A stretch of 64,000 nt of DNA from an uncultured Actinomycetes bacterium (GTDB lineage: Bacteria > Actinomycetota > Thermoleophilia > Gaiellales > JAICJC01). Below, piece by piece: positions 4,879 through 63,060 of the stretch. Each line of letters begins with the position of its first letter. Within the stretch, counting starts at the first letter, position 1. The position numbers and the translations under genes were made by a program. The notes below the pieces were generated by a model that worked only from the letters and a program-made list of their open reading frames with translations, made no database searches and was not told where the DNA came from. The stretch lies in NCBI GenBank assembly GCA_963737445.1, contig CAVTSO010000001.1:398551-462550 (forward strand), read 5' to 3'.

Positions 4879-6510
<1,632 letters not shown>

Positions 6511-35607: not shown

Positions 35608-35608
35608 G

Positions 35609-38272: not shown

Positions 38273-38426
38273 GGTGGCCTCCTCGTCTGGCGGTTGACGA
38301 CATCGATGGTATTTCCGGACAGCCGGCCACTGGGGTCACGGACCACGGTATGGCCGATGCGACCGCCCCGCCGCGCGGGCACGATCCGGCGACGACCGAA
38401 CCCCAACCAACCGAAGGAGATCCTCC

Positions 38427-40365: not shown

Positions 40366-40370
40366 CGCGG

Positions 40371-47850: not shown

Positions 47851-48474
47851 CTAAGCGGTGTAGGCGAGCGCGGCGCGGCCCTCGCTGACCCCGTAGTAGA
47901 CAATCACGAACCCCGCGAGTGGGTCGGCCCACCACCAGCCCAGTGTCGCGTTCAACACCAGGCCGAGCAACACGGCACTGGCGAGGTAGCCGTCGATCAT
48001 CGTCACGCGCGCCTCGGTCGTAAGTACCGGGTTGCCGAGTGCTCGCCCGGTGCGGGCCTTGCCGGCCGCCAGCGCGAACATCGCGACGACGGTGAACGTC
48101 AGCCACGTGATCCCCACGCGCGAGGGATTCGGGTGGGAGGCGGTTGCCACCACGTAGCCGGATTGGATGGTGATGTAGACGGCGAGCGCAATGAAAGCGA
48201 CGCCGATGATCCGCATCGCCTGTCGCTCGCGCCCCTCGTCGACTCCTCGAAGCTGCCAGATCACGACCGCTGATGCCAAGATCTCGATCACTGAGTCCAA
48301 GCCGAACCCGGCCAATGCGACAGATCGCGCAGCCACCGCGGCCGCCAACACGACCACGCTGCCCACCACGTTCCAGCCAAGCGTCGTGTACTCCAGATGC
48401 AGACCGCGGCGAAGCAGCTTCGAATACGCGCTGCGTGATGGCGTCATCTCCAGCCAGTCGGAGGGTCGGAGCAC
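47851..48474 (-). CDS. cation-efflux (CDF-like) membrane-domain protein
   Basis: LEYTTLGWNVVGSVVVL...FGLDSVIEILASAVVIWQL. Six TM helices and no cytoplasmic CDF domain. The start may be ATG 48447. Confidence 0.6.
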   Translation of the reverse strand: MLRPSDWLEMTPSRSAYSKLLRRGLHLEYTTLGWNVVGSVVVLAAAVAARSVALAGFGLDSVIEILASAVVIWQLRGVDEGRERQAMRIIGVAFIALAVYITIQSGYVVATASHPNPSRVGITWLTFTVVAMFALAAGKARTGRALGNPVLTTEARVTMIDGYLASAVLLGLVLNATLGWWWADPLAGFVIVYYGVSEGRAALAYTA

Positions 48475-48728
48475 CGCTCATGCTGGCTGCTTGGCAGCCG
48501 CCGTCGTCGTGCACCTCGCCGCGCCACGCCGCGAGGCCCTCGCGCCGCCGCCCGTGCACCGAGCGTCGAGGTCAGAAGGTTCGGCAAGAGCGCCGTCGGT
48601 ACCTCGTCCCCCATGTCAGATAACAAGCTCGCCAGGCCAATCCCCGCCACTCCGCGGGTCATCCACCCGCGCTTCGGCTGGTCGTGCTCCTGTTCGCGAA
48701 TCTCCGCCATCGATGATTCTTCCATCAT
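48444..48728 (-). pseudogene. MFS transporter, N-terminal fragment only
   Basis: The ATG overlaps the stop of the upstream MutS-like gene (ATGA at 48725-48728). GVAGIGLASLLSDMGDEVPTALLPNLLTSTLGA is a typical first-TM region of an actinobacterial MFS. The frame decays after about 60 aa and the CDF-like gene begins. Confidence 0.4.
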
Positions 48729-50311
48729 GCGCCCCCTGACCCGCGGCCGATGGGCGGCAGCTGGGTCACTGTGTGTTCCGGGGCGGCGGGCTGCTTGCGG
48801 GGTGGCTCCGTGGAGCTGGTCGCGGCCGCCGCGAAGATGCGGCGGTAGGAGTCTTGGCCGTGGCTGGTAGGGAGTGGCGGGCCGGGCGTCACCCGGAAGG
48901 TTCGGGTGCCGTCGGACAGCCGTTCGGCGCGCAGGAACCGTGCGCTCTCGATCTTCTGGCGGTAGAGGCTGTCTGCGAGGTCGTAGAGGTGGGTGACGAC
49001 GTAGACCTTCACGCCGACGTCGAGCATCGCGTGGATCACCTGCCGCGCGATCTCGGAGCCTTCACGCTCGTTTGTGGCGGCGAACGACTCGTTGCACAGC
49101 AGCAGGCATGCGGGCGTGATCTGGTCGGCGATATCGCTCATCCGGTGCAGCTCTTCATCGAGCTTGCCCTGCGTCATGGTTGGATCCTCTTCCCGCTTGA
49201 AGTGAGTGAAGACCGCGTTCACAACGCTCGCTTGGTAGGTCTCGGCGGTGACGTACATTCCTGCCTGCATCATCAGCTGGGCCAATCCGAGGCTGCGCAG
49301 GAACGTCGACTTTCCGCCCTGGTTGGCGCCGGTGATGAGCATCAGCCGGGTGCCGTCGGCGTCAATGTCGTTGCCCACGATCGATGCGCTGAGGTGGAAG
49401 GCGAGCGCGGCATCGTAGAGCGAGCGCGCAGACGTATGCTGGGATGAGGTTGGTTCGGGCGTCGGGAAGCAGGTGGGGAGCTGTTTCGCGGTGAGTTGCT
49501 CGTGCAAGTTCAGGCAGCCGACGTAGAAGGCGAGTTCGGCTCGCAGCGTTTTGCAGAAGCTGAGCACGTGATCGGTCGCTTGGGCGAGCGCGTTGGCGAC
49601 GTGGTTGACGCCTCGGCCGCGCAGTTCGGCGAGCGCCTGCATTCCGTACTCGTCTCGGTCTGCGATCGTGAAGCTGTAGCCTGCTCGCCCCGGCGCGGTG
49701 ATGCGCTCGATAAGGCGGCGCGGTTGCGGCTTTCGCAGGACGAAGTTCGTGCCACGGTTGGCTCTGCCCAGCGTCGCGCTGATAAGCGTACCGTCGCGGA
49801 AACGCATCTGCTTGAGCTGGTGATCGATGGTCTGCAGGTAGGCGTCGTCAAGGTCGCGCTGGAGGGTCGCGAAGAGTTCGGTGAACGCTTGTGAGCAGAA
49901 CGCGGAGCTGTGGTCGTCGGCGATTCGCCGAAGCTCTCGCAGGACGTCGGTGAGCATCTGCAGCATGCCGACGGACTTCTGCAAAACCGAGTCGGGAGAG
50001 TCGCGAAACCAGAAGAACCTGGCGTCGCGCTTGGTATCGACGCCTTTGACCGCCAGGGCGTAGAGCTGACGAATGACCGTGGGATGCTCGAGACAGTCGG
50101 CCAGAGCCCGTTGGCGGTAGCGGATCGCGTCGGGGTCGGTCAGCCCGAGCAGCAGGCCGCTCCGCGCGACGCTGCGCAGGTAGTCGTCGCCGCGGGCCAT
50201 CGCATCGTAGAGCGTGGGGAGTTCGAGATCCCGCTCCAGCGCATCGGCGTTTGCGGGAAGCTGCGCCTCGAGGTCAAAGTCACGATCGGGGTGCATCAGG
50301 TATGCCTTCAT
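48725..50311 (-). CDS. MutS-family ATPase (domain V only), paralog B
   Basis: 528 aa. Walker A ITGANQGGKSTFLRSLG, Walker B LLLCNESFAATN, MutS-type TQGKLDEELHRM and VVTHLYDL. No mismatch-binding or nuclease domain is recognisable. Confidence 0.8.
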   Translation of the reverse strand: MKAYLMHPDRDFDLEAQLPANADALERDLELPTLYDAMARGDDYLRSVARSGLLLGLTDPDAIRYRQRALADCLEHPTVIRQLYALAVKGVDTKRDARFFWFRDSPDSVLQKSVGMLQMLTDVLRELRRIADDHSSAFCSQAFTELFATLQRDLDDAYLQTIDHQLKQMRFRDGTLISATLGRANRGTNFVLRKPQPRRLIERITAPGRAGYSFTIADRDEYGMQALAELRGRGVNHVANALAQATDHVLSFCKTLRAELAFYVGCLNLHEQLTAKQLPTCFPTPEPTSSQHTSARSLYDAALAFHLSASIVGNDIDADGTRLMLITGANQGGKSTFLRSLGLAQLMMQAGMYVTAETYQASVVNAVFTHFKREEDPTMTQGKLDEELHRMSDIADQITPACLLLCNESFAATNEREGSEIARQVIHAMLDVGVKVYVVTHLYDLADSLYRQKIESARFLRAERLSDGTRTFRVTPGPPLPTSHGQDSYRRIFAAAATSSTEPPRKQPAAPEHTVTQLPPIGRGSGGA

Positions 50312-51903
50312 CGGCCGATGCGGCTCCTCAGCCGCTCAGAGGAGAGCCCGTACTTGTCGGCCAGGGCGGCCGCATAGGCGCGGCCGTCGGCCGGCCGGCG
50401 GACGATCTTGAATGTGCGCCGCGTCGGATCGTCGGAAGCGACGGTCGCTACCAGACTCACCGTCTCCTCCCCCAGCCGCGACAGCTCATCGATAAAGGTG
50501 ACCCAAACGGTCGCACAGCCCACATCGACGATACGCCGCAGGACCTCGCTCCCCAAGTAGACGGCGTCGGCCAGGGTTGTCGACGCAAATACCTCGTTGA
50601 GCACCAGGATGCTGCGATCGGTCGCGTGCTCGAGGATTTCGCGCAGCCGCACGAGCTCGTTGTCCAGCCGGCCGCGCAATGTCGAGATGTCCTCCTCCTC
50701 CTCAAACAGCGTGAAAATGTGATCAGCGAGCACGAGCTGCGCTCGGCGTGCCGGAACAGGCACGCCGAGGCTGGCCAGATAGTGGAGTTGGCCGAACGAC
50801 CGCGCGAACGTGGTCTTGCCGCCCTGGTTTGGGCCGGTGACGACGAGGATCCGCTCGGCGCCGCGAAGCATGAAGTCGTTGGTGACGAGTGTCGAGCCGC
50901 CGCCGGCGAGCTTGGTCGCGAGGGCGATGTCGAAAGCGCCTTCGGCCGTAACGTCTCGCAGCTGGGTGGAGACGCTGGGATAACTAAAAGCAAGGTCCGG
51001 CGTCTGGAGCGTGTCCATGTACTCCAGGTATGCGAGGTAGAACTGCAGTTCACGGTCGAACCGGGTGATGCGCGGATCGGGGAATCCGGCCTGGCGGGTG
51101 CAGAACTCCCCGAGCGCGGCGAACTCAGTCGGAAAGAGGCGGCTGACGAGTTGCACGATCCGCGCTTCGACGTGGTCCATCGAACCGGAGTCGGGAACCC
51201 TCACCAGGTGATCCTCGGCGTCTCCCTGGCGGAACCGGGCAAACGTCTGTGCCACCTCGACGGTGTAGTCGGCCTCGCCGTCGTAGGCGCGAACGGTGAC
51301 ACGTCCACCCTTGATCCTCGTCGTGTACCTCACCCGTGCCAGGCCGTCGAGCACGTCGCGAACCTCGTGGACGAGGACCCCGAAACGATCGGATGAGCGG
51401 TATCCGGCGAGGTAGTCGCGCAGTGCGCAGAATCCCTGCGAGGTGAGGTCAACCACGGCCAGCCCGTCGGTCAGCCGGCTGACCGCGTCGCAGTAGATCG
51501 ATGCGGCATCAAGGAACCAGCGCTGCTTCTCCTGTGGGTATCGCTGCTTCTCGGCGAGGGCGAGGTACTGCCGCATGGTTCGCATGCTCTGGGCGAACCC
51601 GCTCACCGCGGCTCGGAGGGCATCCTGTTCGAGATCGCGGAACACGTCGTGTCGGGCGTAGACCGCTTGTGGGTCGTCGAGCGGCGTGTGGAAGAAGCGT
51701 TCGAGCGCGTACTCGTCCCGCCCGGCGACGATCCGGCGGACGACCTGATCCAGGTTCAGATCGGCGAAGCAGGCGGGCTCGAGCGGTTCGGCGTTACCCG
51801 ACTCGGAACTGCTGAAGAGGATGCTGTCGAACTCGGCGACGGGCGTCCCATCGGGGGGGACGGGCGGCTGCGAAGGGGTATCGAGGCGATCAGAACGCGT
51901 CAC
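50308..51903 (-). CDS. MutS-family ATPase (domain V only), paralog A
   Basis: 531 aa with a GTG start at 51903. Walker A VTGPNQGGKTTFARSFG, Walker B ILVLNEVFASTT, STLRGRLDNELVRL and WVTFIDEL. Its stop overlaps the paralog B start (ATGA). Confidence 0.8.
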   Translation of the reverse strand: MTRSDRLDTPSQPPVPPDGTPVAEFDSILFSSSESGNAEPLEPACFADLNLDQVVRRIVAGRDEYALERFFHTPLDDPQAVYARHDVFRDLEQDALRAAVSGFAQSMRTMRQYLALAEKQRYPQEKQRWFLDAASIYCDAVSRLTDGLAVVDLTSQGFCALRDYLAGYRSSDRFGVLVHEVRDVLDGLARVRYTTRIKGGRVTVRAYDGEADYTVEVAQTFARFRQGDAEDHLVRVPDSGSMDHVEARIVQLVSRLFPTEFAALGEFCTRQAGFPDPRITRFDRELQFYLAYLEYMDTLQTPDLAFSYPSVSTQLRDVTAEGAFDIALATKLAGGGSTLVTNDFMLRGAERILVVTGPNQGGKTTFARSFGQLHYLASLGVPVPARRAQLVLADHIFTLFEEEEDISTLRGRLDNELVRLREILEHATDRSILVLNEVFASTTLADAVYLGSEVLRRIVDVGCATVWVTFIDELSRLGEETVSLVATVASDDPTRRTFKIVRRPADGRAYAAALADKYGLSSERLRSRIGR

Positions 51904-51924
51904 TGGCTTCCACCGTTGGGGTCG

Positions 51925-51975
51925 CGGTAGAAGCCATCAGCCCTCTCGGGCGGTTTCAGGCGGGCCTCATCGCCT
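51925..51975 (-). promoter_or_regulatory. fluoride riboswitch (crcB motif) aptamer
   Basis: The minus strand reads AGGCGAUGAGGCCCGCCUGAAACCGCCCGAGAGGGCUGAUGGCUUCUACCG. Block for block this matches the well-studied Thermotoga fluoride aptamer GGGCGAUGAGGCCCGCCCAAACUGCCCUGAAAAGGGCUGAUGGCCUCUACUG (recalled from memory). A TACATT -10-like hexamer (51987-51982) lies 6 nt upstream, and the GTG of the MutS-like gene lies 21 nt downstream. Confidence 0.85.
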
Positions 51976-52274
51976 GCTCACAATGTACCCGACGGGAGCG
52001 CTAACCGATGACCATCACCGGACAGCTCGCACGCCGGATCGACCGGGCAGCTGGGGATATCGACACCCGAAGCCGTCCCAGCCGGGGCGTCCACCTCGGC
52101 TGTCGAAAGCCCTCCAAGCTGCATTCGCCCGGTGCGCGATTACCATCACGACACCGGAGGCAAGGCGGTTCGCCTCGTCGAACCCAGCCGCCATGGCGCG
52201 CCGGCCCCGCGGCGTCGGTTCCACCACCACCATGACGGAGCGCCGTCTCCGATCCGCACAGGCGAGGGGTAGGC

Positions 52275-52517
52275 ATGGGACAGCCGGACGACCAGCACCG
52301 TGAGCAGGTGGCGATTCTGTGGTCAGGTGCCGCATTCATGGCCGTGGCGCTGATCGGCCATCTGCTGCTTCCGCCCGTCGACGTCCTCTGGATCGTGATC
52401 GGGGGCTTTGGCCTTCTCGCCGTTCGCGCAGGCCTTCCTCCGGCGGCGCTGAACGGCCGGTCACGGCCCTTACGGCTCGGCTATAGTGGGCGCGGACGCG
52501 ATGAGGCTCGCGCTTAA
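52275..52517 (+). CDS. possible small 2-TM membrane protein
   Basis: GAGGGG lies 5 nt before the ATG, and two hydrophobic helices are present. However, the 3' end overlaps the promoter and aptamer of the plus-strand riboswitch, so the ORF may be spurious. Confidence 0.3.
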   Translation: MGQPDDQHREQVAILWSGAAFMAVALIGHLLLPPVDVLWIVIGGFGLLAVRAGLPPAALNGRSRPLRLGYSGRGRDEARA

Positions 52518-52546
52518 CCGCCCCCGTGGCTGATGGCCTCTACCAC
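52488..52546 (+). promoter_or_regulatory. fluoride riboswitch (crcB motif) aptamer
   Basis: GGGCGCGGACGCGAUGAGGCUCGCGCUUAACCGCCCCCGUGGCUGAUGGCCUCUACC has the same conserved blocks (GAUGAGGC, AACCGCC, GGCUGAUGGCCUCUAC). A TATAGT -10-like hexamer (52482-52487) lies immediately upstream. Confidence 0.85.
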
Positions 52547-52650
52547 TTTGGGTAGACCACGCCACGAAAGGAGCAGCGGTTGGAGCATATGCGAGTCGCA
52601 ACGGCCGACCGGCGATCACTGACGACGGCACCGATCCGTAGGCTGGCGTC

Positions 52651-53692
52651 GTGAACGTCCCGGCGCTGAAGCTGACCCTGTATTTCAACGAGACGCTCCG
52701 CTGCCGCGGTCATCTCGCGGCGGACCTGCTGTTGGACATGTTCGAGCACGCAGACGTCATGGCCAGCGTGCTCCTCCGCGGCATCGAGGGATTCGGTGCT
52801 CACCACCGACTCCACACCGACCGCTTCGAAAACGCGAGCCTGAACCAGCCGATCGTCGCCGTCGCCATGGATCGTCAGGATCGCATCGAACACTGGCCTC
52901 TCGGGTCGACGAGATCCTCGAAAGCGGGCTGGTCACCACCGAACGCGCCTGGCTGATCGGACAGCCCAGCGAAGGCGTCCTGCCGGCGGTCGCGTACGAC
53001 TCGGTCAAGCTGACCGTCTACTGCGGCCGGGCCGACCGCGTCTGGTGGACTGCCGTCCTACCGGGCGATCATCGATCATCTCCGCGCGAGTGGTGTCGAG
53101 GGAGCGACGGTGTTCCTGGGAGTGGACGGAACGGTGCATGGCCGCCGAGAGCGCGCCGCCTTCTTCTCGCGCAACCGCGAGGTGCCATTGATGATCGTCG
53201 CCGTCGGCCAACCCGACGCCGTCGCACGAAGCCTGCCGGGGATCCGCCGGCTCGCGGACAGGCCGATCATCACCGTCGAGGGTATCCAGATCTGCAAACA
53301 GGACGGCGAGCTGATCGCCGCTCCCACCCCGGCGCCGGGTCTCGGAGCGCGGCGGCATCTGGCGGAAGCTGATGATCCACGCCGCCGGCGACACCCACGT
53401 CGGCGGCGAATCGCTGCACTATCAGCTGGTCGAGCAGCTGCGCCGCATCGACGCGGCCGGCGCGACGTCACTTCGCGCGATCTGGGGGTATCGCGGTCAG
53501 GCGCCTGCCCACGGCGACTCGGTCTGGTCGATCAGACGCACGAGCCCTGTGGTCACGATCGTGATCGACCGCGATGAACGGGTCGGCGCGACCTGGGAGG
53601 TCATCGATCTGCTCACCCGTGAGGCTGGTCTGGTGACCAGCGAGCTCGTCCCCGCCCACCGCGCTCTGGCAGCGGAGGCCAGTGCCCGATGA
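52651..53692 (+). pseudogene. three tandem DUF190 (PII-like, CrcB-associated) domains in one gene; frame interrupted three times
   Basis: D1 LKLTLYFNETLRCRGHLAADLLLDMFEHADVMASVLLRGIEGFG. D2 VKLTVYCGRADRV/GGLPSYRAIIDHLRASGVEGATVFLGVDG. D3 RKLMIHAAGDTHVGGESLHYQLVEQLRRIDAAGATSLRAIWGYRG. There are no stops between domains in the corrected reading. Frame changes are at about 52897, 53040 and 53355. Confidence 0.7.
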
Positions 53693-53708
53693 CCGGTGAG
53701 GGACGCTC

Positions 53709-55337
53709 GTGCCGTATCTGAGCGACTGGGTGATCCAGCTGTTTCAGGTCGGAACGGTGCTCGTGCTGGGCCCGCTGGTGATGGGCATCATCGCCCGCGC
53801 CGAGGCCATCGTCCAGATGCGTCGTGGACCGCGGCTGCTCCAGCCCTACTACGACATCGCCAAGTTCTTCCATAAGGAGACGGTGCTTCCGGGCGACGCG
53901 GGCGTCGTCTTCCGCGCGGCGCCCTACGCCTCCTTTGCCTGCTACATGACGGTGCCGCTGCTGATCCCGGTGCTGACCAACTTCCCGCTCCAGCTCGGCT
54001 ACATGGGCGACATCCTGGGCGGCGGCTTCATCCTAGCCCTGGCCAGCTTCTCGGTCTCCCTGGCCGCGCTCGACACCGGCACCCCCTACACCCAGCTCGG
54101 CTCGAGCCGCCTGCGAAGCTTCGGCGCGCTCGGGGAGCCGACGATCCTGGTCGTCATCTTCACCGTGGCGCTGATCACCCACACCGACCTGCCCTACGCC
54201 CTGGTCAAGACGCTGGAGGGATCTGCCGCCGAGATCACCCGCCCCGCGCATCTGCTGGCCGCAGCTGCCTTCTTCCTCGTCATCCTCGCGGAGACCGGCC
54301 GAATCCCGATCGAAAGCCACGGCTCCACGCTCGAGTTCGGCATGATCGAGGAGGCGCGCACGCTCGAGCATTCCGGCCCCGGCTTCGCGCTGCTGCGATG
54401 GGGCTCGACTATGAAGCAGCTGATCCTGTTCGTGATCTTCCTGAACGTGCTCGTCGCACCCTGGGGCCTGGCCGCCGATCACCGCCTCGACCACGTCCTG
54501 CTCGCGATCGTGATCCTCTTCGCAAAGACGCTTGGGATCGGCCTTGTGATCGTGGTGATCGAGTCGGCCTACGCCAAGCTTCGGCTCTACAAGATTCCCG
54601 AGTTCACCGTCGCGGGCTTCCTGCTGGCTGTGCTGGCGGTGATCACGTTCGTCTTCCAGGAGAGCTTTCAGCCCGGTCAGCTGACCGTCTTTGCAGGCAC
54701 GGCGACCGTGATCGCGGTGGTCGTGCTGCTGCTCGAGTTCGTGATGCTTCGAAGCCAGGATGTCTGGGAGCTGCTTCGTCTCTACGGCCTGGCGTCGCTT
54801 CTGATCGGCGTGCTCGCCTTTTGCGCCGCCGCGACCGGCCACGACCGGGGGCTGTATGTGCTGGGCGCAGTCACGATCGGCTTCAAGGCCCTGCTCGTCC
54901 CCCTCGGCGTCGGGTTCCTCCTGCGCACACTGGAGGTGCCCGAGCGGGTGCCCTCCTCGATCAGCGCGCCTTCCGCAGTGCTTGCAGGCATCGTGCTTTC
55001 CGGCTTTGCGTTCTACACCCTGTCTCGCCTGAACCTGCCCGAGCCGGGAACCTTGCCGCTGGCGGCGTTGGCGGTCGCTATGGCGGCCGTCCTGGTCGCG
55101 TTCTTGCTCATGATCGTGCGGCCCTATGCGCCGTCGCAGCTGCTCGGATTCCTGGCCGTGGAAAACGGCGCGACGCTCGCGAGTCTTGTCGTCGCGCCCG
55201 GTCTCCCGCTGATCCTGGCGGTGCTGCTGCTGTTCGACGTGCTGATCGGCGTCGTCGTGTTCGTCGTGCTCGTCCAGTACCTGGCGATGGAGCGCAGCTC
55301 CGTCACTACCCACGTCCTTGACAGGTTGCGGGGCTGA
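53709..55337 (+). CDS. fused HycD/HyfC-like (NuoH-type) and HyfE-like (NuoK-type) membrane subunit
   Basis: 542 aa with a GTG start. The N-terminal roughly 310 aa carry RRGPRLLQPYYDIAKFFHKE...ETGRIPIE (NuoH/HycD family). The C-terminal roughly 220 aa form a multi-TM HyfE-like region ending AVENG...LLLFDVLIGVVV. Confidence 0.8.
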   Translation: MPYLSDWVIQLFQVGTVLVLGPLVMGIIARAEAIVQMRRGPRLLQPYYDIAKFFHKETVLPGDAGVVFRAAPYASFACYMTVPLLIPVLTNFPLQLGYMGDILGGGFILALASFSVSLAALDTGTPYTQLGSSRLRSFGALGEPTILVVIFTVALITHTDLPYALVKTLEGSAAEITRPAHLLAAAAFFLVILAETGRIPIESHGSTLEFGMIEEARTLEHSGPGFALLRWGSTMKQLILFVIFLNVLVAPWGLAADHRLDHVLLAIVILFAKTLGIGLVIVVIESAYAKLRLYKIPEFTVAGFLLAVLAVITFVFQESFQPGQLTVFAGTATVIAVVVLLLEFVMLRSQDVWELLRLYGLASLLIGVLAFCAAATGHDRGLYVLGAVTIGFKALLVPLGVGFLLRTLEVPERVPSSISAPSAVLAGIVLSGFAFYTLSRLNLPEPGTLPLAALAVAMAAVLVAFLLMIVRPYAPSQLLGFLAVENGATLASLVVAPGLPLILAVLLLFDVLIGVVVFVVLVQYLAMERSSVTTHVLDRLRG

Positions 55338-55339
55338 CG

Positions 55340-56815
55340 ATGAGCTGGTTGCTGGTCGCCATGATCGTCGTGCCGCTTGCAGTCTCGATCGCCGCGCTTG
55401 TTGTCCATCCTGGCGTTGCCCAGATGCTGACGGTCGCATCGGGCTGTGCGGCGCTGGGGATCGCCGTGCTGGCGGCGTTCGCCGTACGCGACGGAAGCAC
55501 GCTGCACGCCCTCGGAGGCTGGATCGGCCTGGATGCCCTCGGCGCGGTGTTTTTGTTGCCGACGGCGTTTCTGTACGCCGTCTCCGCCGTCTACTCGGTT
55601 GGCTACATGCGCGGCGAGAGCCGCGAAGACTACGCCCCCTTCGCGCGCCGCTACACCGTCTATCTGAACCTGTTCTGCCTGACGATGCTGCTCGTGCCGC
55701 TGGCCACCGACTTCGCCAGCCTCTGGATCGCTGTCGAGCTGACCACGATCATCTCCGCGCTGCTGGTGGCACTCGACCGCACGGACGCCGCTCTCGAAGC
55801 TGCCTGGAAGTACGTGCTGATCGCCTCCGCCGGGTTGGGCATCGCACTGATGGGTCTGATCATCCTCTATGCAGCAGCCACCGCGCCGCTCGGGTCCGAC
55901 CATGTGCCCCGCTTCGCCGACTACACACGCGTCTCGGCCAGCCTGCACCCCGACATCGTCAAGCTCGCCTTCCTGCTGGCCGTGGTCGGCTTCGGAACCA
56001 AGGCCGGCTTCGCGCCCATGCACACCTGGCTGCCCGACGCACACTCAGAAGCGCCGACGCCGGTATCGGCGCTCCTGTCTGGGTCGCTCCTCGCCAACGC
56101 GTTCTACGCCATCCTGCGCTTCTACCAGGTGGCCGTGGCCACCGGCGGACACGCCTTCCCCGACCGGGTGCTGGTCGTCTTCGGCGTTGTCTCGTTGGCT
56201 GTCGCTGCTGTCTTTGTCATGCGCCAGGAGAACTACAAGCGTCTGCTTGCCTACTCGTCGATCGAGCACGTCGGCGTGATCGCCGTGGGCGTCGGCTTCG
56301 GCAGCCCGCTCGCCATCTTCGGAGCGCTGTTGCACGTCGTCAGCCACGCCGCGGCCAAGGGTCTTGCCTTCCTTGGCGCGGGGTCGATCCTACGCCGCTA
56401 CGACACCAAGCTCGTCGGCAACGTCGGCAACGCCGTCGGTGTCCTCCCGTGGAGCGGTCCGATGTTCCTGTTCGCCGGTATCGCTCTCTCCGGCCTGCCG
56501 GTGTCAGGCGTCTTTCGAAGCGAGTTCCAGGTCGTCACGGCCGGGTTCGCCAACCCCTCCTACGTTGCCGTCGCACTGCTGATCATCCTCGTGAACCTCG
56601 CCTTCTTCGGCGTGATGTGGCACATCGGGCGGATGACGCTGTCCGCCGACACCCCCGTAGCCCCCACGCACACCGGCGAGACCAGTCGATGGATGGTCGC
56701 CGCCATGATCGGCTGCCTGGTGGTGCTGGTCGGCTTGGGCATCCATGTTCCCGGCAGCCTCTCGGATCTGCTCGGACACGCGGCCAGCAGTCTCCGCCAG
56801 GGAGTCGCCAGATGA
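55340..56815 (+). CDS. NuoM/N-type antiporter-like subunit (HyfF/HyfD-like)
   Basis: 491 aa. WIAVELTT, GFGTKAGFAPMHTWLPDAHSEAP and KRLLAYSSIEHVG. Confidence 0.85.
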   Translation: MSWLLVAMIVVPLAVSIAALVVHPGVAQMLTVASGCAALGIAVLAAFAVRDGSTLHALGGWIGLDALGAVFLLPTAFLYAVSAVYSVGYMRGESREDYAPFARRYTVYLNLFCLTMLLVPLATDFASLWIAVELTTIISALLVALDRTDAALEAAWKYVLIASAGLGIALMGLIILYAAATAPLGSDHVPRFADYTRVSASLHPDIVKLAFLLAVVGFGTKAGFAPMHTWLPDAHSEAPTPVSALLSGSLLANAFYAILRFYQVAVATGGHAFPDRVLVVFGVVSLAVAAVFVMRQENYKRLLAYSSIEHVGVIAVGVGFGSPLAIFGALLHVVSHAAAKGLAFLGAGSILRRYDTKLVGNVGNAVGVLPWSGPMFLFAGIALSGLPVSGVFRSEFQVVTAGFANPSYVAVALLIILVNLAFFGVMWHIGRMTLSADTPVAPTHTGETSRWMVAAMIGCLVVLVGLGIHVPGSLSDLLGHAASSLRQGVAR

Positions 56816-58294
56816 GCGAGACCCGACAGATCCCGGATCAGCCGCACGATCCCTTCGTCTCGATCGGCGTTTCCGAGCAAGGCGACGCGTCTGCCGAAAC
56901 GAGGCTGAGCGTGCCGCTGGCCGACCTGGCGTCAGCGGCGGCCGAGTTGGCCCGCCAAGGCCGGTTTCTGACGCTCACCACGACCAACCGGCCGGGCTCG
57001 CTGCTGGTCGGCGTTCGCGATCCGCGGCGAGATCGTCGAGGTCGTCGCCACGGCGTCGGAAACGCGCTCCTACCCAGCAGTCTCGAGCGGGGTTCCAGCC
57101 GCCGGCTGGGCCGAGCGCGAGGCACGCGACGCCGCCGCGTTCCAGCCCGACGGGCTGCCCGACCCGCGGCCGTTCCTGAATCCCGACGTCGACGCCGTCG
57201 CCCCGCGCTTGGTCGGCGACGACGCGTTCGTGATGCCCTATGGCCCGGTGCGTTCCGGTGTCTTCGAAGCCATCCAGTTCATCATCGAGACCGGCGGCGA
57301 GGATGTTCCCCTGCTCGACGTCCGCACAGGATTCAAACATCGCGGCCTGGAACGGCGGATGGTCGGCCTGACCGCTCGCGACGGCGCGGTCGTCGCAGAG
57401 CGCGTTGCCGGCATCTCCTCGGTCGCCCATGCACTGGCCTGCTGCCAGGCGGTCGAGCGTGCGCTGGGCGTCACGCCCCCCCGGCGGGCTGAGCTGTGGC
57501 GTGCCGTGCACGCCGAGCTGGAACGCATCGCCAACCACCTGCACTGCGCCGCACAACTGGCCGAGACAACGGCGCTTCACCTCGGCGTCGCCCGGTTCGG
57601 GATCCTGAAAGAAGACGTGATGCGGCTGCGAGCCGAGCTCTGCGGCAACCGGTTCGGTCGCGGAGTCGTGATCCCCGGCGGCGTCACCGAGTTCGACGCC
57701 AACACGACCGACACGCTGATGGACGCGATCGAGCATCTCGACACCGACCTTCGCCGCGACCGGCGACTGCTGGTGGGGACCACATCCTTCACCGACCGGC
57801 TGTTCGGCACGGGTCACCTGCCGCGCGACCTGGCCGAACGCTACGCGGTCGTCGGCCCCGTCGCCCGCGGCTCCGGCGTCTCGACCGATGCCCGCTTCGA
57901 ACGACCCTACGGCGCCTACCGCCGCCTGGGCTGGCAACTGGTCACTCGGACCGCCGGCGACGCGATGGCACGCCTCGAGGTTCGCCTCGGCGAGATCACA
58001 CAGAGCATGCACATCATCCGCCAAGCGGTCGACGCGCTCAGGCGCACCGAACCAACTGTCGCCAGCCCGCTGCCGCCGGCCGACGGAGCGGCCTGGGGCT
58101 GGGCCGAAGCGGCGCAAGGCGAGGTGCTCTACCGCCTCGAGATCGACGCCGGTCGCATCCGACACGCGCACATCGCCTCGCCGTCGCTGCGCAACTGGCA
58201 GGTCTTCGCCCACTGCTTCCCACGCGACGTGCTGACCGACTTCGGCTTCATCGAACACAGCTTCCAACTCACGCCGGCCGGCGCGGATCGGTAG
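56812..58294 (+). pseudogene. HycE/HyfG-like (NuoC-NuoD fusion) 'large subunit' lacking all four Ni-Fe cysteines; one frameshift
   Basis: The ATG overlaps the previous stop (ATGA). The frame changes at about 57008 (GSLLV/AFAIRGEIVEVV). L1 reads ERVAGISSVAH where hydrogenases have ERxCGxCxxxH. The C-terminus reads SFQLTPAGADR* where they have DPCxxCxxR. Confidence 0.8.
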
Positions 58295-58299
58295 ACGGC

Positions 58300-59067
58300 A
58301 TGCTCGAATGGATCTGGAGAGGACTGCGAAAGGGACGGGTCACCAGCCGCTACCCCGACCAGCCCGAGCAGGCGCCGCAGCTCCTGCGCGGACGCATCAG
58401 CGTTCTCAACGCCGAGGGCGCCGACCCCGGCCTCGCCACGATCTGCCCGACCGGCGCCATCGCCGTCGAGGAGACGACCGTCAACGTCGACCGCGGCCGC
58501 TGCATCCTGTGCGGGGTCTGCGTCGAGCGCCACCCCGACCGATTCGCCTTCCACCCGGTCCACGAGACGGCCAGCCAGCATCGAGAAGCACTCTGGGTCC
58601 GCCCGCACGCCACGGCCACACCGAACGGAGCGGCACCGCCGCTGGGCCAGCGCTTCCCCGCGCTTCGCCGCTCGATCCACATCCGCCACGTCGATACCGG
58701 CTCTGACGGCAGCGAGGAGTGGGAGATCGCCGCGCTCACCAACCCCTACTACGATATGCAGCGGCTCGGCCTCTTCTTCACCGCCGCCCCCCGCCACGCC
58801 GACATCCTGCTCCTCACCGGCGTCGCCACCGCGGCGATGCGCGAACCGCTGTTGCGGACGTGGCAGACGATGCCTGACCCCAAGGCCGTTGTCGCGGTCG
58901 GCACCGACGCCTGCTCAGGCGGCCTCGCCGGACACAGCATCGGCGCCTCCGGAGTGGCCGGCCTTGTCCCCGTAGACGTGTTCGTGCCGGGCTCGCCGCC
59001 GACGCCGATCGCCATCCTCCACGGCCTGTTGCTCGCCGCGGGACTTCTGACGGAGAACACCGGATGA
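58300..59067 (+). CDS. fused HycF-like (ferredoxin) and HycG/NuoB-like 'small subunit', Fe-S ligands mostly lost
   Basis: 255 aa. Of the ferredoxin part only ICPTGAI and CILCGVCVERHP remain (4 Cys). The NuoB part reads HVDTGSDGSEEWE, GTDACSGG and PGSPPTP where the family has GSCNGCE, GACA and PGCPP. Confidence 0.8.
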   Translation: MLEWIWRGLRKGRVTSRYPDQPEQAPQLLRGRISVLNAEGADPGLATICPTGAIAVEETTVNVDRGRCILCGVCVERHPDRFAFHPVHETASQHREALWVRPHATATPNGAAPPLGQRFPALRRSIHIRHVDTGSDGSEEWEIAALTNPYYDMQRLGLFFTAAPRHADILLLTGVATAAMREPLLRTWQTMPDPKAVVAVGTDACSGGLAGHSIGASGVAGLVPVDVFVPGSPPTPIAILHGLLLAAGLLTENTG

Positions 59068-61028
59068 ACGCAACCCTGCTCGCCGCGCTCGCCCTGCTCG
59101 TCGCGGCCATCCCCGTCAGCTACCTGTCGCGCCGAGTCGCGATGGCGGCGTCGCTGCTCGCCGCGGTTTGCATGACCGTCGTCGGTTTCAGTGCGGCCGG
59201 CGCCTGGGGCACCGCACATGTCAGCCTCGGCGACTGGCTCGGCTTCGGCGAGACAACGCTGCGCGTCGACCGGCTGGCCGGCGTCTTCCTCGGCCTGGCA
59301 GGCCTGCTCGCCGTCTCCGTCACGCTCCGCTACCTGGAAGCGCGGCCGAGCCGAGTCGTCTGCGCGCTGCACGCCGCGCTGCTGCTCGCAGTGATCGCCG
59401 TCATCACCACCGATCAGGCCTTCGCCTTCCTCCTTGCCTGGGAGGCACTCACCGTCGTCATCTACCTGCTCGCAAGCGCCGACCGAACGCGCGCCGGGAC
59501 ACTGGTCTCCGGCTACCTGACCGGCGCGCTCAACAAGATCAGCGGCGCCGCGCTGCTGGCAGCGTTCGGGCTGCTGTATGGCTCCACGCACAGCCTCCGC
59601 TTCGCCGACTGGCACACCGCCGCCCTGTCGTCCAACACCCGCAACGCCGTCTTCGTCCTGCTGGTCGCCGGCTTCGCCGCCAAGATCGGCATCCCGCCGC
59701 TGCAAGCAGCCCTGCCGGCCAGCTATGAGGCGGCGCCCAGCCCCGCCTCGGCGACGCTCTCGATCGCCCTCGTCGGCGGCTTCTACGGCCTCTGGCGGCT
59801 GGTCTACGAAACGCTCGCCCCGGCCGCGCTGTGGTGGGGAGAGGCACTCCTGGTCATCGGCAGCATCACCGCCCTGCTCGGCATCATCTATGCGATCGCC
59901 CAAAGCGACATGCGCCGCTTCCTCGGCTTCTCAAGCGTCGAACACACCGGCATCACGCTGCTCGGCCTCGGCACAGCCCTGCTCGGACAAGCCACGCATC
60001 ACCGGGAGCTGATCGCCGCCGGCATCCTCGCCGCCACCCTCCACGTCATCGCCCACGCGATCGGAAAGACGCTCGCCCTGCTCTCCGCAGATCGCATCGC
60101 CGAGGCGACCGGCACCGCCAAGCTCGGGCCACTCGGCGGCCTCTCCCGGCACCTCCCCGCGTCGTCGGTCGGTCTGGGGCTGGCGACCGTCACCCTCGCC
60201 GCGCTGCCACCGTTCGGCGGCTTCGTCAGCGAATGGTTCACGCTCGAAGCGCTGCTGCAAGGCTTCCGCGTCGACAACACGCTCGCTCGGCTGCTGATGG
60301 CGCTGGCCGCGGCCGCGCTCGCGCTGACCGCAGGGCTGGGGCTGCTCGCCTTCGCCAAACTGTTCGGCTCGACCATCCTCGGCCAAGCACGCTCCCGGCT
60401 GCCCAAGCCGGTCGAATCCGGCCTCCCCATCGGCCTGGCACTGCTCGCCACCTGTGCGCTGCTGCTGGGACCGATCGCACCATGGGAGATCCGGCTGCTC
60501 GGAACCGCGCTCACCCCGACCCTCGGCTTCGACCCCGCCACAACCGCGATCAGCCATCCACTCGTCCTGGGCCCCGTCTACTCCGGCTTCTCCGTGCTCG
60601 CCCCCACCTGGCTCTCGATCGCCCTACCCAGCTTCGCAATCGCAGCGGCACTGATCGTCAGGCTGGCGCGCCGCTCACCGGCGAGGCGCGCAGCACCATG
60701 GGTCTGTGGCACCTCACTCCCACCCGAGCTCGTGCAGTACACCCCCTCCGGATACTCCAACCCGATCCGGGTCGTCCTGCGCAGCGTGTACGGCTTCCGC
60801 CGCCGCGTGGTGCCGATCCCCGGCGAACCCAACCCTGGCCGGTTCGAGTTGCAGACCTCGATGGTCGCGCTCGTTGAAGACCGCATCTATCGCCCGCTCA
60901 CCGACACCACGCTTGCGATCACCGCCCGGGGCCGCAAGCTGCAATCGGGCCGGCTCGGCTCCTACCTCGCCTACATCCTGATCGTGCTTCTGATCGCCCT
61001 CGCCCTGATACCAACCCTCACCCACTGA
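59064..61028 (+). CDS. NuoL-type antiporter-like subunit (HyfB/HycC-like)
   Basis: 654 aa with about 16 TM helices. WEALTVVIYLL, FAAKIGIPPLQAALP and RRFLGFSSVEHTG. The C-terminal extension is typical of HyfB. Confidence 0.85.
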   Translation: MNATLLAALALLVAAIPVSYLSRRVAMAASLLAAVCMTVVGFSAAGAWGTAHVSLGDWLGFGETTLRVDRLAGVFLGLAGLLAVSVTLRYLEARPSRVVCALHAALLLAVIAVITTDQAFAFLLAWEALTVVIYLLASADRTRAGTLVSGYLTGALNKISGAALLAAFGLLYGSTHSLRFADWHTAALSSNTRNAVFVLLVAGFAAKIGIPPLQAALPASYEAAPSPASATLSIALVGGFYGLWRLVYETLAPAALWWGEALLVIGSITALLGIIYAIAQSDMRRFLGFSSVEHTGITLLGLGTALLGQATHHRELIAAGILAATLHVIAHAIGKTLALLSADRIAEATGTAKLGPLGGLSRHLPASSVGLGLATVTLAALPPFGGFVSEWFTLEALLQGFRVDNTLARLLMALAAAALALTAGLGLLAFAKLFGSTILGQARSRLPKPVESGLPIGLALLATCALLLGPIAPWEIRLLGTALTPTLGFDPATTAISHPLVLGPVYSGFSVLAPTWLSIALPSFAIAAALIVRLARRSPARRAAPWVCGTSLPPELVQYTPSGYSNPIRVVLRSVYGFRRRVVPIPGEPNPGRFELQTSMVALVEDRIYRPLTDTTLAITARGRKLQSGRLGSYLAYILIVLLIALALIPTLTH

Positions 61029-61465
61029 TGTTCCAACAGATACTGATCGCCTGGGACGCCTCGCGCCCCGCCGTCCACGCCCTCGACGTCGCCATCGACC
61101 TGGCACGACGCTACGACGGAGAGATCGTCGCCGTCAGCGTCGCCCTGGCTCCCACCCATGCCGAGACGAGGGAGGACCGAGACGAGTCGGTCGAGGCCGC
61201 GCGGGAACACCTGGAAGGCACGCTCGCCGCGTTGCGAGACCGCGCCGATCGCGTCGGAGTCCCACTCGAGCACGTCATCATCACCGGCAGCCACCCGGCC
61301 GAGGACATCCTGCGCTACGCCCACGAACACGGCACGGACCTGGTGATCGTCGGTCGCCACTCGAGCAGCCGCGCAGGGCGGATGCTGCTCCGCGGCGTAT
61401 CCGACCAGCTCGCCCGCTCCGCACAGCTACCTGTACTGATCGTCGGAGAACCCAACGGTGGGTGA
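61028..61465 (+). CDS. universal stress protein
   Basis: 145 aa. ILIAWDAS...DLVIVGRHSSSRAGRMLLRGVSDQLARSAQLPVLIV. The start overlaps the HyfB-like stop (TGATG). Confidence 0.85.
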   Translation: MFQQILIAWDASRPAVHALDVAIDLARRYDGEIVAVSVALAPTHAETREDRDESVEAAREHLEGTLAALRDRADRVGVPLEHVIITGSHPAEDILRYAHEHGTDLVIVGRHSSSRAGRMLLRGVSDQLARSAQLPVLIVGEPNGG

Positions 61466-61483
61466 CACCAAGCAAGGACGCCG

Positions 61484-61939
61484 ATGAGCGCCGACGTCGC
61501 CTTCGACGAATCGCCAACCGCAGCCAGGCGCGCGCCTCGCCGCCCGTTCACGACCGGCTCTGAGCGCGTCGCGATCGCGCTCGGCGGTGCACTTGGCGCC
61601 TACGCACGCGTCCTCGTCGATCAGGTGATCGGCCCGCCCGGACAGGGATGGCCATGGGCGACCTTCACCGCAAATACCGTCGGCGCGTTCCTACTCGGCT
61701 ACTTCACCGCCCGGCTCCTCGAGCGACTCCCACCATCGACATACCGCCGTCCGATGCTGGGTACAGGCTTCTGCGGAGCGCTGACCACCTTCTCGACACT
61801 GCAGTTCGAGCTCTTCAGTCTCCTGCAATCGGGGCGATACCTGCTGGCGACGGCCTACGCCGCGGCATCCGTGCTCGCCGGGTTCGCAGCCTTCCTGGGC
61901 GCGATATGGCTCGTGCGAAGGGCGCGGGTCTTGTGGTGA
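61484..61939 (+). CDS. crcB: fluoride channel subunit CrcB/Fluc (1 of 2)
   Basis: GGALGAYAR...WATFTANTVGAFLLG...GFCGALTTFSTL. Confidence 0.9.
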   Translation: MSADVAFDESPTAARRAPRRPFTTGSERVAIALGGALGAYARVLVDQVIGPPGQGWPWATFTANTVGAFLLGYFTARLLERLPPSTYRRPMLGTGFCGALTTFSTLQFELFSLLQSGRYLLATAYAAASVLAGFAAFLGAIWLVRRARVLW

Positions 61940-62307
61940 ACATCGCCACCTACGCGTGGCCGCTGATCGGCCTGGTCGGAGCGGTCGGAGCGACGCTTCG
62001 CGTCAGCGTCGACAACGCCGTCAAACGGCGCACCAGCGAGCGATTCCCCTTCGGCACGCTCGCCGTCAACCTCAGCGGAGCGCTCGCGCTCGGGATCATG
62101 CACGGCCTTGCCGCCCAGGGAACCATCGCACTCCTCATTGGGACGGCCGGCCTCGGCACCTACACAACCTTCTCCACCCTCGTCTTCGAAACCGAGCGAC
62201 TGCTCGAAGAAGGAGACCGACTCCTGGCCGGAGCGAACCTCCTGGGATCGATGATCCTCGGCCTGGACGCCGCGGCCCTGGGCTGGGCACTCGGACACGC
62301 TCTATGA
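61936..62307 (+). CDS. crcB: fluoride channel subunit CrcB/Fluc (2 of 2)
   Basis: GTG 61936 overlaps the previous stop (GTGA). GAVGATLR...FGTLAVNLSGALALG...GLGTYTTFSTL. Confidence 0.9.
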   Translation: MNIATYAWPLIGLVGAVGATLRVSVDNAVKRRTSERFPFGTLAVNLSGALALGIMHGLAAQGTIALLIGTAGLGTYTTFSTLVFETERLLEEGDRLLAGANLLGSMILGLDAAALGWALGHAL

Positions 62308-62507
62308 GCCGACGCAACCGCGACAACGGCACCACATGGCGCCACCTCATCGCCCTCGCCGGCTGGTGGGGAGTGGCCATCGGCGTCGCCGGGCTGATCT
62401 GGCACCGCAGCCTCTACCCACTCTGGATCGCCCTGATCGCCTTCGGGCTCGCCGGAGCCCCGCGACCCATCCTCGACTGGATCAGGGAACACAGGCGGAA
62501 GCAATGA
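62304..62507 (+). CDS. 67-aa two-TM membrane protein translationally coupled to crcB
   Basis: The ATG overlaps the crcB2 stop (ATGA). MSRRNRDNGTTWRHLIALAGWWGVAIGVAGLIWHRSLYPLWIALIAFGLAG... Confidence 0.45.
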   Translation: MSRRNRDNGTTWRHLIALAGWWGVAIGVAGLIWHRSLYPLWIALIAFGLAGAPRPILDWIREHRRKQ

Positions 62508-62977: not shown

Positions 62978-63060
62978 CCGGTGGCCGGGCATCTTGGATC
63001 GAGCCGTTTCGCGAGATCGGCACGACCGTGAGCCAGGTGCCCAGCGACTGGAGGTGAGCG

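Follow-up and report, generated by a model that had tools for sequence, protein, structure and literature searches.

Gene content of a locus with two divergent fluoride riboswitches

We analyzed a 64-kb window (64,000 nucleotides (nt), G+C content 69%) of contig CAVTSO010000001.1, from an uncultured actinobacterium of the Thermoleophilia (Gaiellales), in which two fluoride riboswitches lie back to back and lead into two divergent operons. Scanning the whole window against Rfam with cmscan returned exactly two matches, both to the fluoride riboswitch family RF01734. Both matches cover model positions 1-64, i.e. the full length, and both score above the gathering score of 34 bits (Table 1). Two outward-pointing aptamers had been proposed at this place by the original prediction, which was made by reading the sequence, and the scan bears this out, with 504 nt separating their 5' ends. 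The 3' end of the leftward aptamer is located 18 nt ahead of the start of a MutS-like ATPase gene (MutS4A), and that of the rightward aptamer 101 nt ahead of a DUF190 gene in an operon that also carries crcB. Both aptamers thus sit in the 5' leaders of fluoride-regulon genes.

The leftward operon was found to contain two paralogous MutS-like genes (MutS4A and MutS4B), the remnant of an MFS transporter gene, and a gene for a short CDF-like membrane protein. The stop codon of MutS4A and the start codon of MutS4B overlap as ATGA at 50311-50308, and each junction from MutS4B through the MFS remnant to the CDF-like gene is also an ATGA overlap. The coupling of the first three genes agrees with the original prediction, which had placed the start of the locus at 48444, whereas the operon runs on into the CDF-like gene. 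The 94-amino-acid (aa) open reading frame (ORF) that had been read as a truncated MFS gene has no Pfam match, and in none of the frames does an MFS-like sequence continue beyond it. Over 56 aa, it shares 55% identity (E=6e-16) with the N-terminus of a riboswitch-controlled MFS protein in a related locus (L002), and because of this similarity we regard it as a true MFS remnant. The CDF-like gene also has a match to the CDF superfamily in NCBIfam, which is below the cut-off, and a homologue with 60-61% identity adjoins the MutS4A/MutS4B pair (MutS4AB) on a Mycobacterium branderi plasmid.

The rightward operon comprises ten genes with five overlapping junctions (ATGA three times, GTGA once, and TGATG once) and gaps of at most 18 nt. 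The order, overlaps, and gaps stand as predicted, but the triple-DUF190 gene and the gene for the large subunit of the membrane complex are not intact ORFs.

Table 1 Features of the proposed fluoride-response locus and their positions in the window.
Feature	Position	Strand	Evidence
Fluoride riboswitch aptamer, leftward copy	51983..51921	-	Rfam RF01734, 51.7 bits, E=2e-11
Fluoride riboswitch aptamer, rightward copy	52488..52549	+	Rfam RF01734, 39.3 bits, E=2e-7
Putative expression platform, 12-bp hairpin	51904..51936	-	RNA fold
Competing hairpin of the rightward leader, without U-tract	52525..52566	+	RNA fold; retained in L001
Divergent promoter/spacer region	51984..52487	.	blastn of window against L001
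MutS4A, 531 aa, MutS core, clamp, and ATPase	50308..51903	-	Pfam MutS_V 5.6e-20
MutS4B, 528 aa, paralogue of MutS4A	48725..50311	-	Pfam MutS_V 4e-18
Fluoride-regulon MFS transporter remnant (first ~64 codons; 94-aa ORF)	48444..48728	-	Similarity to L002 MFS
Short CDF-like membrane protein, 198 aa, transmembrane domain only	47851..48447	-	Pfam Cation_efflux 27.5 bits (cut-off 26.6)
Triple-DUF190 (UPF0166) protein gene, three frame changes	52651..53692	+	Pfam DUF190 x3, 1.3e-57
NuoH/HyfC-like subunit fused to HyfE-like domain, 542 aa	53709..55337	+	Pfam NADHdh 5.2e-30, residues 16-314
Antiporter-type subunit, HyfF/NuoM/MbhH-like, 491 aa	55340..56815	+	Pfam Proton_antipo_M 3e-45
NuoC+NuoD/HyfG-like large subunit, 1-nt insertion at 57011	56812..58294	+	Pfam Complex1_49kDa, NiFeSe_Hases, Complex1_30kDa (reconstructed 494 aa)
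Ferredoxin-like (HyfH/NuoI-like) and NuoB/HycG-like fusion, 255 aa	58300..59067	+	Pfam Oxidored_q6 and Fer4_15
Antiporter-type subunit, HyfB/NuoL-like, 654 aa	59064..61028	+	Pfam Proton_antipo_M 3.2e-39
Universal stress protein (USP)	61028..61465	+	Pfam Usp 6.2e-26
CrcB/Fluc fluoride channel subunit 1 (predicted)	61484..61939	+	Pfam CRCB 2.5e-27, above cut-off
CrcB/Fluc fluoride channel subunit 2 (predicted), GTGA-coupled	61933..62307	+	Pfam CRCB 4.2e-21, above cut-off
67-aa predicted membrane protein, ATGA-coupled to crcB	62304..62507	+	Coding signal, Viterbi segmentation

We then analyzed the folding of the two leaders. In the leftward leader, the 3' pseudoknot strand of the aptamer (GGCUUCUACCGC) pairs with a Shine-Dalgarno-like stretch (GGUGGAAGCC; given also as GGUGGAAG), which abuts the GUG start codon of MutS4A at 51903. 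This hairpin was found in the minimum free energy and centroid structures alike, and the fold suggests that the leader would act as a translational ON switch. The hairpin predicted in the rightward leader uses the 3' strand of aptamer stem P3 together with the pseudoknot strand, and probably attenuates transcription when fluoride is absent. A scan of positions 51700-52800 matched no sigma-70-like promoters or intrinsic terminators. A possible leader peptide in the rightward leader (a 21-codon ORF at 52589-52654 with a strong AAAGGAG and GTGA coupling to DUF190) was rejected because its ATG is not conserved in the nearest related locus (L001). In the spacer between the aptamers, a stretch of about 400 bp (52012-52414) is missing from L001, whose aptamers stand only about 106 nt apart. 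A weak coding signal was seen there at 52306-52419, and a Pfam search of the ORFs in the stretch gave no match.

The MutS4 pair and the Ehr-like membrane complex

MutS_V is the sole Pfam domain of both MutS-like proteins, and Pfam detected no Smr domain in either. Matches of PDB profiles to the MutS-like protein begin only at about residue 300. By profile comparison, both proteins appear to lack a mismatch-binding domain I and a connector domain II. They are also far from canonical MutS1, since the NCBIfam mutS1 and PRK05399 models give 75.7 bits (cut-off 641.7) and 84 bits (cut-off 480), respectively, and only the ATPase region aligns. In the description of the MutS4 subfamily by Lin, Nei and Ma in 2007, the architecture is MutSac-only, the A and B paralogues are neighbors, and the A stop codon overlaps the B start codon (PMC2190696). 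We assign the pair to MutS4A/MutS4B because it shares these three features: MutSac/MutS_V is the only recognizable domain, the paralogues are adjacent, and stop and start overlap. The patchy distribution of MutS4 across bacteria and Thermoplasmatales archaea, which resembles horizontal gene transfer, was likewise seen in the family studied here. The same query retrieved an A/B pair from Ferroplasma (35% and 33% identity; L028) and one from M. branderi.

The AlphaFold model of MutS4A has a predicted local distance difference test score of 83, and Foldseek matches the whole chain to MutS and MutS2. Against the MutS2 core of Thermus thermophilus (7vuf), the TM-score normalized to that core is 0.62-0.65. 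The modelled chain has lever, clamp, and ATPase domains, and the clamp hairpin bears conserved basic residues. The Walker A motif (GPNQGGKT in MutS4A) is kept in both paralogues. The Walker B motif reads Asn-Glu rather than Asp-Glu in both paralogues at every locus examined (50596-50601 in MutS4A and 49063-49068 in MutS4B in the window). A structure of the Escherichia coli MutS variant D693N is among the Foldseek matches of MutS4A. The Asn-Glu motif is the natural equivalent of D693N, which implies that the ATP site handles Mg2+ differently. A role as a transmembrane ABC-type exporter was considered and rejected because hydropathy shows no transmembrane segments in the MutS-like proteins.

The five genes following DUF190 encode homologues of HyfB, HyfC+HyfE, HyfF, HyfG, and HyfH+HyfI, as in the E. 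coli hydrogenase 4 and formate hydrogenlyase (FHL) complexes. The top NCBIfam matches of the 491-aa and 654-aa subunits are hydrogenase 4 subunits F and B (3.8e-117 for the latter), and residues 335-542 of the 542-aa subunit match a hydrogenase-4 membrane subunit; all three matches are below the cut-off. The nearest solved chains are HycE and HycG of E. coli FHL, followed by those of Pyrococcus furiosus MBH, and the 255-aa fusion matches E. coli HycG (7z0s_G) at 1.6e-31.

We examined the metal-binding positions of these subunits by alignment. The large subunit has RVAGISSVAH in place of RxCGxCxxxH, and its C-terminus reads LTPAGADR instead of DPCxxCxxH/R. The Ni-Fe ligands are missing in all nine large subunits aligned ('drvCgiCgfaH' of HycE stands opposite 'ervagiaavaH'), and the whole protein has a single conserved Cys. 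In the small-subunit domain, the four proximal-cluster Cys are substituted, in HVDTGSDGSEEWE, GTDACSGG, and PGSPP, by conserved Asp, Glu, Asp, and Ser; here 'vdCggCngCeie', 'gaCgnsgg', and 'pgCpp' of HycG are aligned opposite 'vdtgsdgseewe', 'gtdacsgg', and 'pgspp'. The motifs HVDxGSDGxEEWE, GTDACSGG, and PGSPP are nearly invariant among 120 small-subunit homologues (PGSPP in 118; PGSPP and GSDGxEEWE range over 118-120). The ferredoxin-like domain keeps exactly four Cys (CP and CxxCxxC) in 9/9 relatives and in 115-120 of the 120 homologues, and these four make up the ligand set of one [4Fe-4S] cluster. The complex had been called cofactor-less. This holds for the Ni-Fe and proximal [4Fe-4S] sites but not for the ferredoxin motif.

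The charged residues of the antiporter-like subunits were found to be retained. In the 491-aa subunit, the Glu of transmembrane helix (TM) 5, the Lys of TM7 and TM8, and the Glu of TM12 are kept relative to MbhH (6cfw_H), and the 654-aa subunit shows the same charged antiporter motifs. The positions of the quinone-site Tyr and His of T. thermophilus Nqo4, at the residue numbers that we take to mark this site, align to Gly and Arg.

We compared the complex with the known types. It is not a complex I, as the N2 ligands are replaced in the NuoB-like domain and the locus has no NuoEFG genes. Neither operon, here or in related loci, contains a formate dehydrogenase or another electron-input module. 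No MrpB/C/E/F/G proteins are recognizable, and NuoB/C/D/I-like peripheral-arm proteins are present; the likeness to an Mrp-type antiporter therefore means that the complex works like one, not that it belongs to that family. Ehr complexes are defined as homologues of group-4 hydrogenases without the Ni-Fe-coordinating residues and with Mrp antiporter-like subunits (PMC6349859). Judged by its residues, the complex is Ehr-type by this definition and has none of the defining features of an FHL. With the Ni-Fe site and the proximal cluster lost, along with the residues of the quinone site, it cannot be an FHL. It shares the missing Ni-Fe Cys with Ehr, but differs from Ehr, Hyf, and FHL in that all proximal [4Fe-4S] ligands are replaced, one of the two ferredoxin clusters is lost, HyfA, HyfD, and formate dehydrogenase are absent, two gene fusions have occurred, and a fluoride riboswitch lies upstream.

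The remaining rightward genes include known fluoride-regulon members. The two CrcB proteins score 95.7 and 75.7 bits against a Pfam cut-off of 32.9, and their genes are adjacent and overlapping, so the pair is a predicted CrcB/Fluc fluoride channel. Such channels are typically encoded by two genes whose products assemble as a dual-topology dimer. The frame-corrected DUF190 product has 348 aa with three PF02641 domains. Intact triple-DUF190 homologues were found in L006 (13938-14972) and L008 (3682-4716), and the three-domain fusion is conserved at about 345 aa. The solved relatives are 2dcl and 1o51, and the entry of the single-domain 2dcl has three chains; the triple-DUF190 protein is likely a single-chain pseudo-trimer. 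The USP gene always follows the Ehr-like genes, or a CPA antiporter in other islands. The 67-aa ORF has no match in Pfam or NCBIfam and no homologue in the other loci compared. Directly past the island, at 62615-63678, are genes for an ArsR-family regulator and a low-molecular-weight phosphatase (ArsC-type). In relatives, the arsenic-type neighborhood (L002, 19322-21533; L004, 716-4093) adds methyltransferases and an aquaporin (MIP). As the same neighborhood recurs, fluoride and arsenic loci appear to travel together.

Distribution of the modules in related loci and plasmids

We compared 31 non-redundant MutS4A loci, consisting of the locus in the window, four metagenome contexts, and 26 loci from GTDB. 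The taxa sampled include Thermoleophilia/Gaiellales, other Actinomycetota, Chloroflexia, Acidobacteriota, Planctomycetota, Spirochaetales, Eubacteriales, Burkholderiales, and Rhodanobacter. Aptamers were searched with Rfam and with a covariance model (R1) built from ten aptamers. Since R1 detects insertion-bearing aptamers of proteobacteria less readily than Rfam does, apparently negative loci were rescanned with Rfam.

The original prediction had proposed a survey of co-occurrence behind fluoride riboswitches, and this survey showed that in 23 loci (22 besides the window) a riboswitch precedes MutS4A by no more than 300 nt. In four others it was located farther upstream with co-oriented genes in between, and in the last four neither Rfam nor R1 found one upstream of MutS4A. 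An aptamer also precedes 11 of the 12 Ehr-like operons that could be assessed, including those of Rhodanobacter lycopersici (52.6 bits) and the M. branderi plasmid. Back-to-back divergent aptamer pairs occur in at least 13 related loci. Co-regulation by fluoride, as had been proposed, is thus a sound inference, given that related loci in several phyla have the same riboswitch control.

The A/B pair was kept wherever the contig reaches beyond MutS4A, and its neighbors occurred in varying combinations: the Ehr-like complex with USP, enolase, pyrophosphatase, MFS, and CrcB with triple-DUF190. The nearest relative, L001, has no crcB at the locus, and its DUF190 gene has been deleted except for the last ~30 nt. 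The modules (MutS4AB; Ehr-like or CPA with USP; CrcB pair; DUF190; MFS; enolase; pyrophosphatase) are freely recombined between genomes. The idea of one integrated multi-component system is therefore not upheld. We also observed a fluoride aptamer in L002 (14280-14344, plus strand, 51.4 bits) that is not followed by any called gene in its own orientation. This aptamer points toward the 3' terminus of the MFS gene under riboswitch control, which is encoded on the other strand, and could be an orphan, precede an uncalled small ORF, or act in antisense.

MutS4A homologues were identified on 45 plasmids of PLSDB. Klebsiella accounts for 18 of them, and the other hosts include Enterobacter, Citrobacter, Salmonella, Rhodococcus, Burkholderia, Rubrobacter, and Mycobacterium. 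On a Klebsiella pneumoniae IncFIB plasmid, one riboswitch precedes genes for a cation:proton antiporter, USP, MutS4A, and MutS4B, and the other strand has a second riboswitch ahead of ppaC-uspA-eno-gpmA-crcB-ATPase. The latter operon has been studied experimentally in Enterobacter cloacae FRM, where it is induced by fluoride and required for high resistance. The enterobacterial plasmid islands (K. pneumoniae NZ_CP058867 and E. coli NZ_CP067312, including the operon of the E. cloacae FRM GI3 type) share with the window riboswitch-controlled MutS4A/MutS4B and USP, with adjoining riboswitch-controlled crcB, enolase, and pyrophosphatase genes. They differ in having a single-gene cation:proton antiporter in place of the five-gene Ehr-like complex and in having the four genes in one operon rather than divergent; E. 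cloacae FRM differs further in being without MutS4AB. Plasmid 2 of Rubrobacter radiotolerans shares the divergent arrangement, with antiporter and USP behind a riboswitch on one side and MutS4A, MutS4B, and MFS on the other, but its antiporter is of the CPA type, no second aptamer scores above the Rfam threshold, and its operons have no crcB or DUF190.

The plasmid islands bear on the function of the Ehr-like complex. A CPA antiporter with USP was found in 7 loci and the Ehr-like complex with USP in 13, each module directly behind a riboswitch, and the two were never found together in these 20 loci. This non-orthologous displacement is the best evidence here that the Ehr-like complex does an antiporter-like job, and the mutual exclusion in gene content supports a predicted role in ion or pH homeostasis. 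The antiporter-like module for pH or ion homeostasis that had been suggested for the locus thereby gains support. Na+/H+ antiporters have been reported as the second most common class of genes associated with the riboswitch, and fluoride stress has been tied to pH homeostasis (PMC11139923). An antiporter-like role fits this known link between fluoride stress, hydrogen fluoride (HF) influx, and pH homeostasis.

Two other gene classes were observed at the related loci. On the M. branderi plasmid (L036), a fluoride aptamer (5090-5150, plus strand, 53.6 bits) lies ahead of PE/PPE and WXG100 (ESX-type) genes, a class unexpected behind a fluoride riboswitch, which are followed by a second aptamer and MutS4AB. 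In fluoride islands of plasmids and metagenome-assembled genomes, a P-type cation ATPase gene was found repeatedly next to MutS4AB, namely in L033 (12123-14459, minus strand), L035 (11040-13637, minus strand), and L027 (3420-5675, plus strand). In E. cloacae FRM, the truncated 'orf5249', annotated as a divalent-cation-transporting ATPase, holds the same position after crcB and may be the remnant of a P-type cation ATPase.

Proposed function, alternatives, and relation to known systems

We propose, with a probability of about 0.6, that the region is a modular fluoride-response island composed of independent, swappable modules. A rise in cytoplasmic fluoride would turn on both divergent operons through the back-to-back riboswitches. 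In the leftward leader, the ligand would hold the 3' strand of the aptamer in the pseudoknot and so free the ribosome-binding site that is otherwise hidden by the 12-bp hairpin. In the rightward leader, the long hairpin without a U-tract would attenuate transcription in the absence of fluoride. The CrcB pair would export fluoride, which is the established function of the family. The Ehr-like complex, as a relic of a group-4 hydrogenase, would carry out Mrp-like cation/proton translocation without redox chemistry and would most likely defend cytoplasmic pH and membrane potential against HF influx, and the triple-DUF190 protein and USP could be accessory regulators. MutS4A and MutS4B would form a heterodimer that resembles the MutS2 core, an ATP-gated clamp without mismatch-recognition or nuclease domains. 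This heterodimer would most likely clamp nucleic acid, more likely DNA than ribosomes, and protect or restart processes stalled by Mg-fluoride inhibition. This clamp role is the least certain step; by analogy with MutS2, ribosome rescue might be proposed in its place.

The frame breaks in the rightward operon allow another reading. The three DUF190 domains lie in three frames, with switches near 52890, 53047, and 53340 (mapped by tblastn with the intact L006 homologue, in agreement with a Viterbi segmentation by codon usage). The NuoC/D-like gene has a 1-nt insertion relative to L001, to which it is 89% identical, and the segmentation recovers this break exactly. Three frame changes in a 1-kb gene and one in the large-subunit gene, the true truncation of the MFS gene, and the deletion of DUF190 and absence of crcB in L001 would fit a decaying locus, in which real pseudogenising mutations have left the rightward operon partly non-functional. 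We consider this unlikely. Breaks of the same kind were found in ordinary genes across the window, at about one per 5 kb, including a SoxR-like regulator (~32103), an alcohol-dehydrogenase-like gene (~39694), an esterase (~38751, also with an in-frame stop at 38619), and an aldo-keto reductase (35.4-36.5 kb), which points to assembly indel errors or a pseudogene-rich genome. Moreover, three different insertions of 1 nt are found in L001, in genes whose copies in the window are intact, and MutS4 genes are fragmented in other metagenome-assembled genomes with the same type of 'contig_N' name (L029, L030, and L032). For these reasons, the breaks are most likely a property of the assembly, namely long-read consensus errors, and decay specific to this locus was rejected on account of the comparable breaks that the segmentation shows in unrelated genes. 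The ranges of the broken ordinary genes are 31782-32456, 34704-36542, 38420-39065, and 39418-40371, and the genes in them include, besides the SoxR-like regulator, the esterase, and the aldo-keto reductase, a 3-hydroxyisobutyrate-dehydrogenase-like and a Zn-alcohol-dehydrogenase-like gene. A fragment of an rve/IS481-like transposase (9148-9657, minus strand), whose frame extends more than 600 nt past the coding signal, is probably a degraded insertion sequence.

Other explanations concern what the two main modules do. The Ehr-like complex might still be a redox enzyme whose ion pumping is driven by the [4Fe-4S] cluster that it keeps together with a partner encoded elsewhere, be it ferredoxin, formate dehydrogenase, or another oxidoreductase, so that energy metabolism is re-routed under fluoride stress as the 'formate hydrogen lyase' label implies. 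The invariance of the CP and CxxCxxC Cys is consistent with this, the solved structures that come closest are those of true hydrogenases, a pairing with formate dehydrogenase has been proposed for Ehr complexes elsewhere (PMC6349859), and in a 2024 review the genes associated with the riboswitch are regarded as formate hydrogen lyase (PMC11139923). However, the Ni-Fe and proximal-cluster ligands are gone, the quinone-site Tyr and His have become Gly and Arg, no route for electrons from the single cluster to a catalytic site is evident, none of 13 loci has an oxidoreductase partner in the operon, and a plain cation:proton antiporter substitutes for the complex in 7 islands; a redox enzyme is thus improbable. 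For MutS4AB, a further proposal is an ATP-driven reactivase or chaperone that would free phosphoryl-transfer enzymes, such as enolase and pyrophosphatase, poisoned by Mg-fluoride. KamC, a MutS_V-type ATPase, sets the precedent by reactivating lysine 5,6-aminomutase. MutS4B matches the NCBIfam KamC and MutS2 models equally well (6e-18 and 4e-18, respectively), and the Walker B Asn alters Mg2+ coordination at the ATP site. MutS4AB neighbors enolase in 7 loci and pyrophosphatase in 6, with enolase co-oriented just downstream of MutS4B at 18 nt (L021) and 159 nt (L031). Yet the similarity to KamC is limited to the ATPase domain and far below the model cut-off, the whole-chain fold is that of MutS/MutS2 including the clamp hairpin with its conserved basic residues, and enolase and pyrophosphatase are common riboswitch targets by themselves, so that adjacency may only reflect a shared regulon. 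By analogy with KamC, such a reactivase is conceivable, and we think it very unlikely.

A bolder combination of these ideas has, in our estimate, little chance of being correct. It would make the Ehr-like clade a redox-independent translocator whose antiporter-like subunits are gated by a pocket of invariant Asp/Glu/Asp/Ser for a hard metal or Mg-fluoride at the former proximal-cluster site, lined by GSDGxEEWE, GTDAC, and PGSPP. MutS4AB, both subunits of which carry Asn where the Walker B Asp would coordinate Mg, would act as a clamp that tolerates fluoride or is triggered by it, and would rescue DNA or ribosomal machinery that Mg-fluoride has stalled. The two modules would then make up a second line of defense, one that works other than by export and is spread by plasmids.

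Several points weigh against the modular fluoride-response island proposed above. The rightward leader has no canonical terminator, and because of the four frameshifts parts of the operon may be inactive in this copy. The invariant four-Cys ferredoxin motif could indicate a residual redox function. Several aptamers ahead of Ehr-type operons score below the Rfam gathering score, such as that of L003 (27.6 bits, with a 16-nt insertion), and the others below this threshold rest on R1, for which E-values are rough. In the only experiment on MutS4, the operon of Mycobacterium yongonense increased homologous recombination in M. smegmatis, with fluoride not involved (PMC5742357). Finally, E. cloacae FRM is highly resistant without MutS4 or the Ehr-like complex, and the MutS4 and Ehr-like modules are, because the FRM island confers resistance without them, accessory at best.

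The associations themselves are not new. Weinberg et al. reported in 2010 that mutS and formate hydrogen lyase genes are found behind the crcB motif (PMC2864571), as the original prediction had noted, and the 2024 review repeats the association while taking the hydrogenlyase label literally (PMC11139923). The NCBI pipeline already labels the E. coli plasmid genes as riboswitch, cation:proton antiporter, universal stress protein, and two MutS-related proteins. With this annotation and the 2010 report, the novelty first claimed for the locus was overstated. The genes crcB, mutS-like, 'formate hydrogen lyase', USP, DUF190, and MFS are all listed classes of the known RF01734 regulon. The locus differs in its two back-to-back aptamers driving divergent operons, an architecture for which we found no description in the literature searched. 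The same literature contained no paper dealing with both MutS4 and fluoride, and neither the 2007 MutS4 study nor the M. yongonense study draws such a link. The Type I island of M. yongonense has 13 ORFs, including enolase, six 'NADH dehydrogenase complex' ORFs with a hydrogenase subunit, and MutS4A/B (PMC5742357), and these neighbors match those described here. That study proposes a role in recombination, whereas in the window and 22 other loci a fluoride riboswitch is located directly upstream of MutS4A.

The locus thus ties together three separate literatures. The riboswitch-linked 'mutS' and 'formate hydrogen lyase' genes have been on record since 2010, and the locus sharpens the question of their role without answering it. 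The modules also occur in cultured bacteria, such as Rhodanobacter lycopersici Si-c, Parafrigoribacterium mesophilum MSL-08, and Fontivita pretiosa B-254, and on plasmids of Klebsiella, Enterobacter, Salmonella, and E. coli, so that knock-outs and reporter assays are feasible. The 13-gene 'non-mycobacterial' island of M. yongonense, which has been read as a driver of recombination, has the gene content of a fluoride island. The riboswitch-linked 'mutS' genes are the MutS4A/MutS4B pair, named in 2007 and in the literature searched never connected with fluoride, and the 'formate hydrogen lyase' is an Ehr-type complex incapable of a hydrogenase role, whose slot is filled by an antiporter elsewhere.

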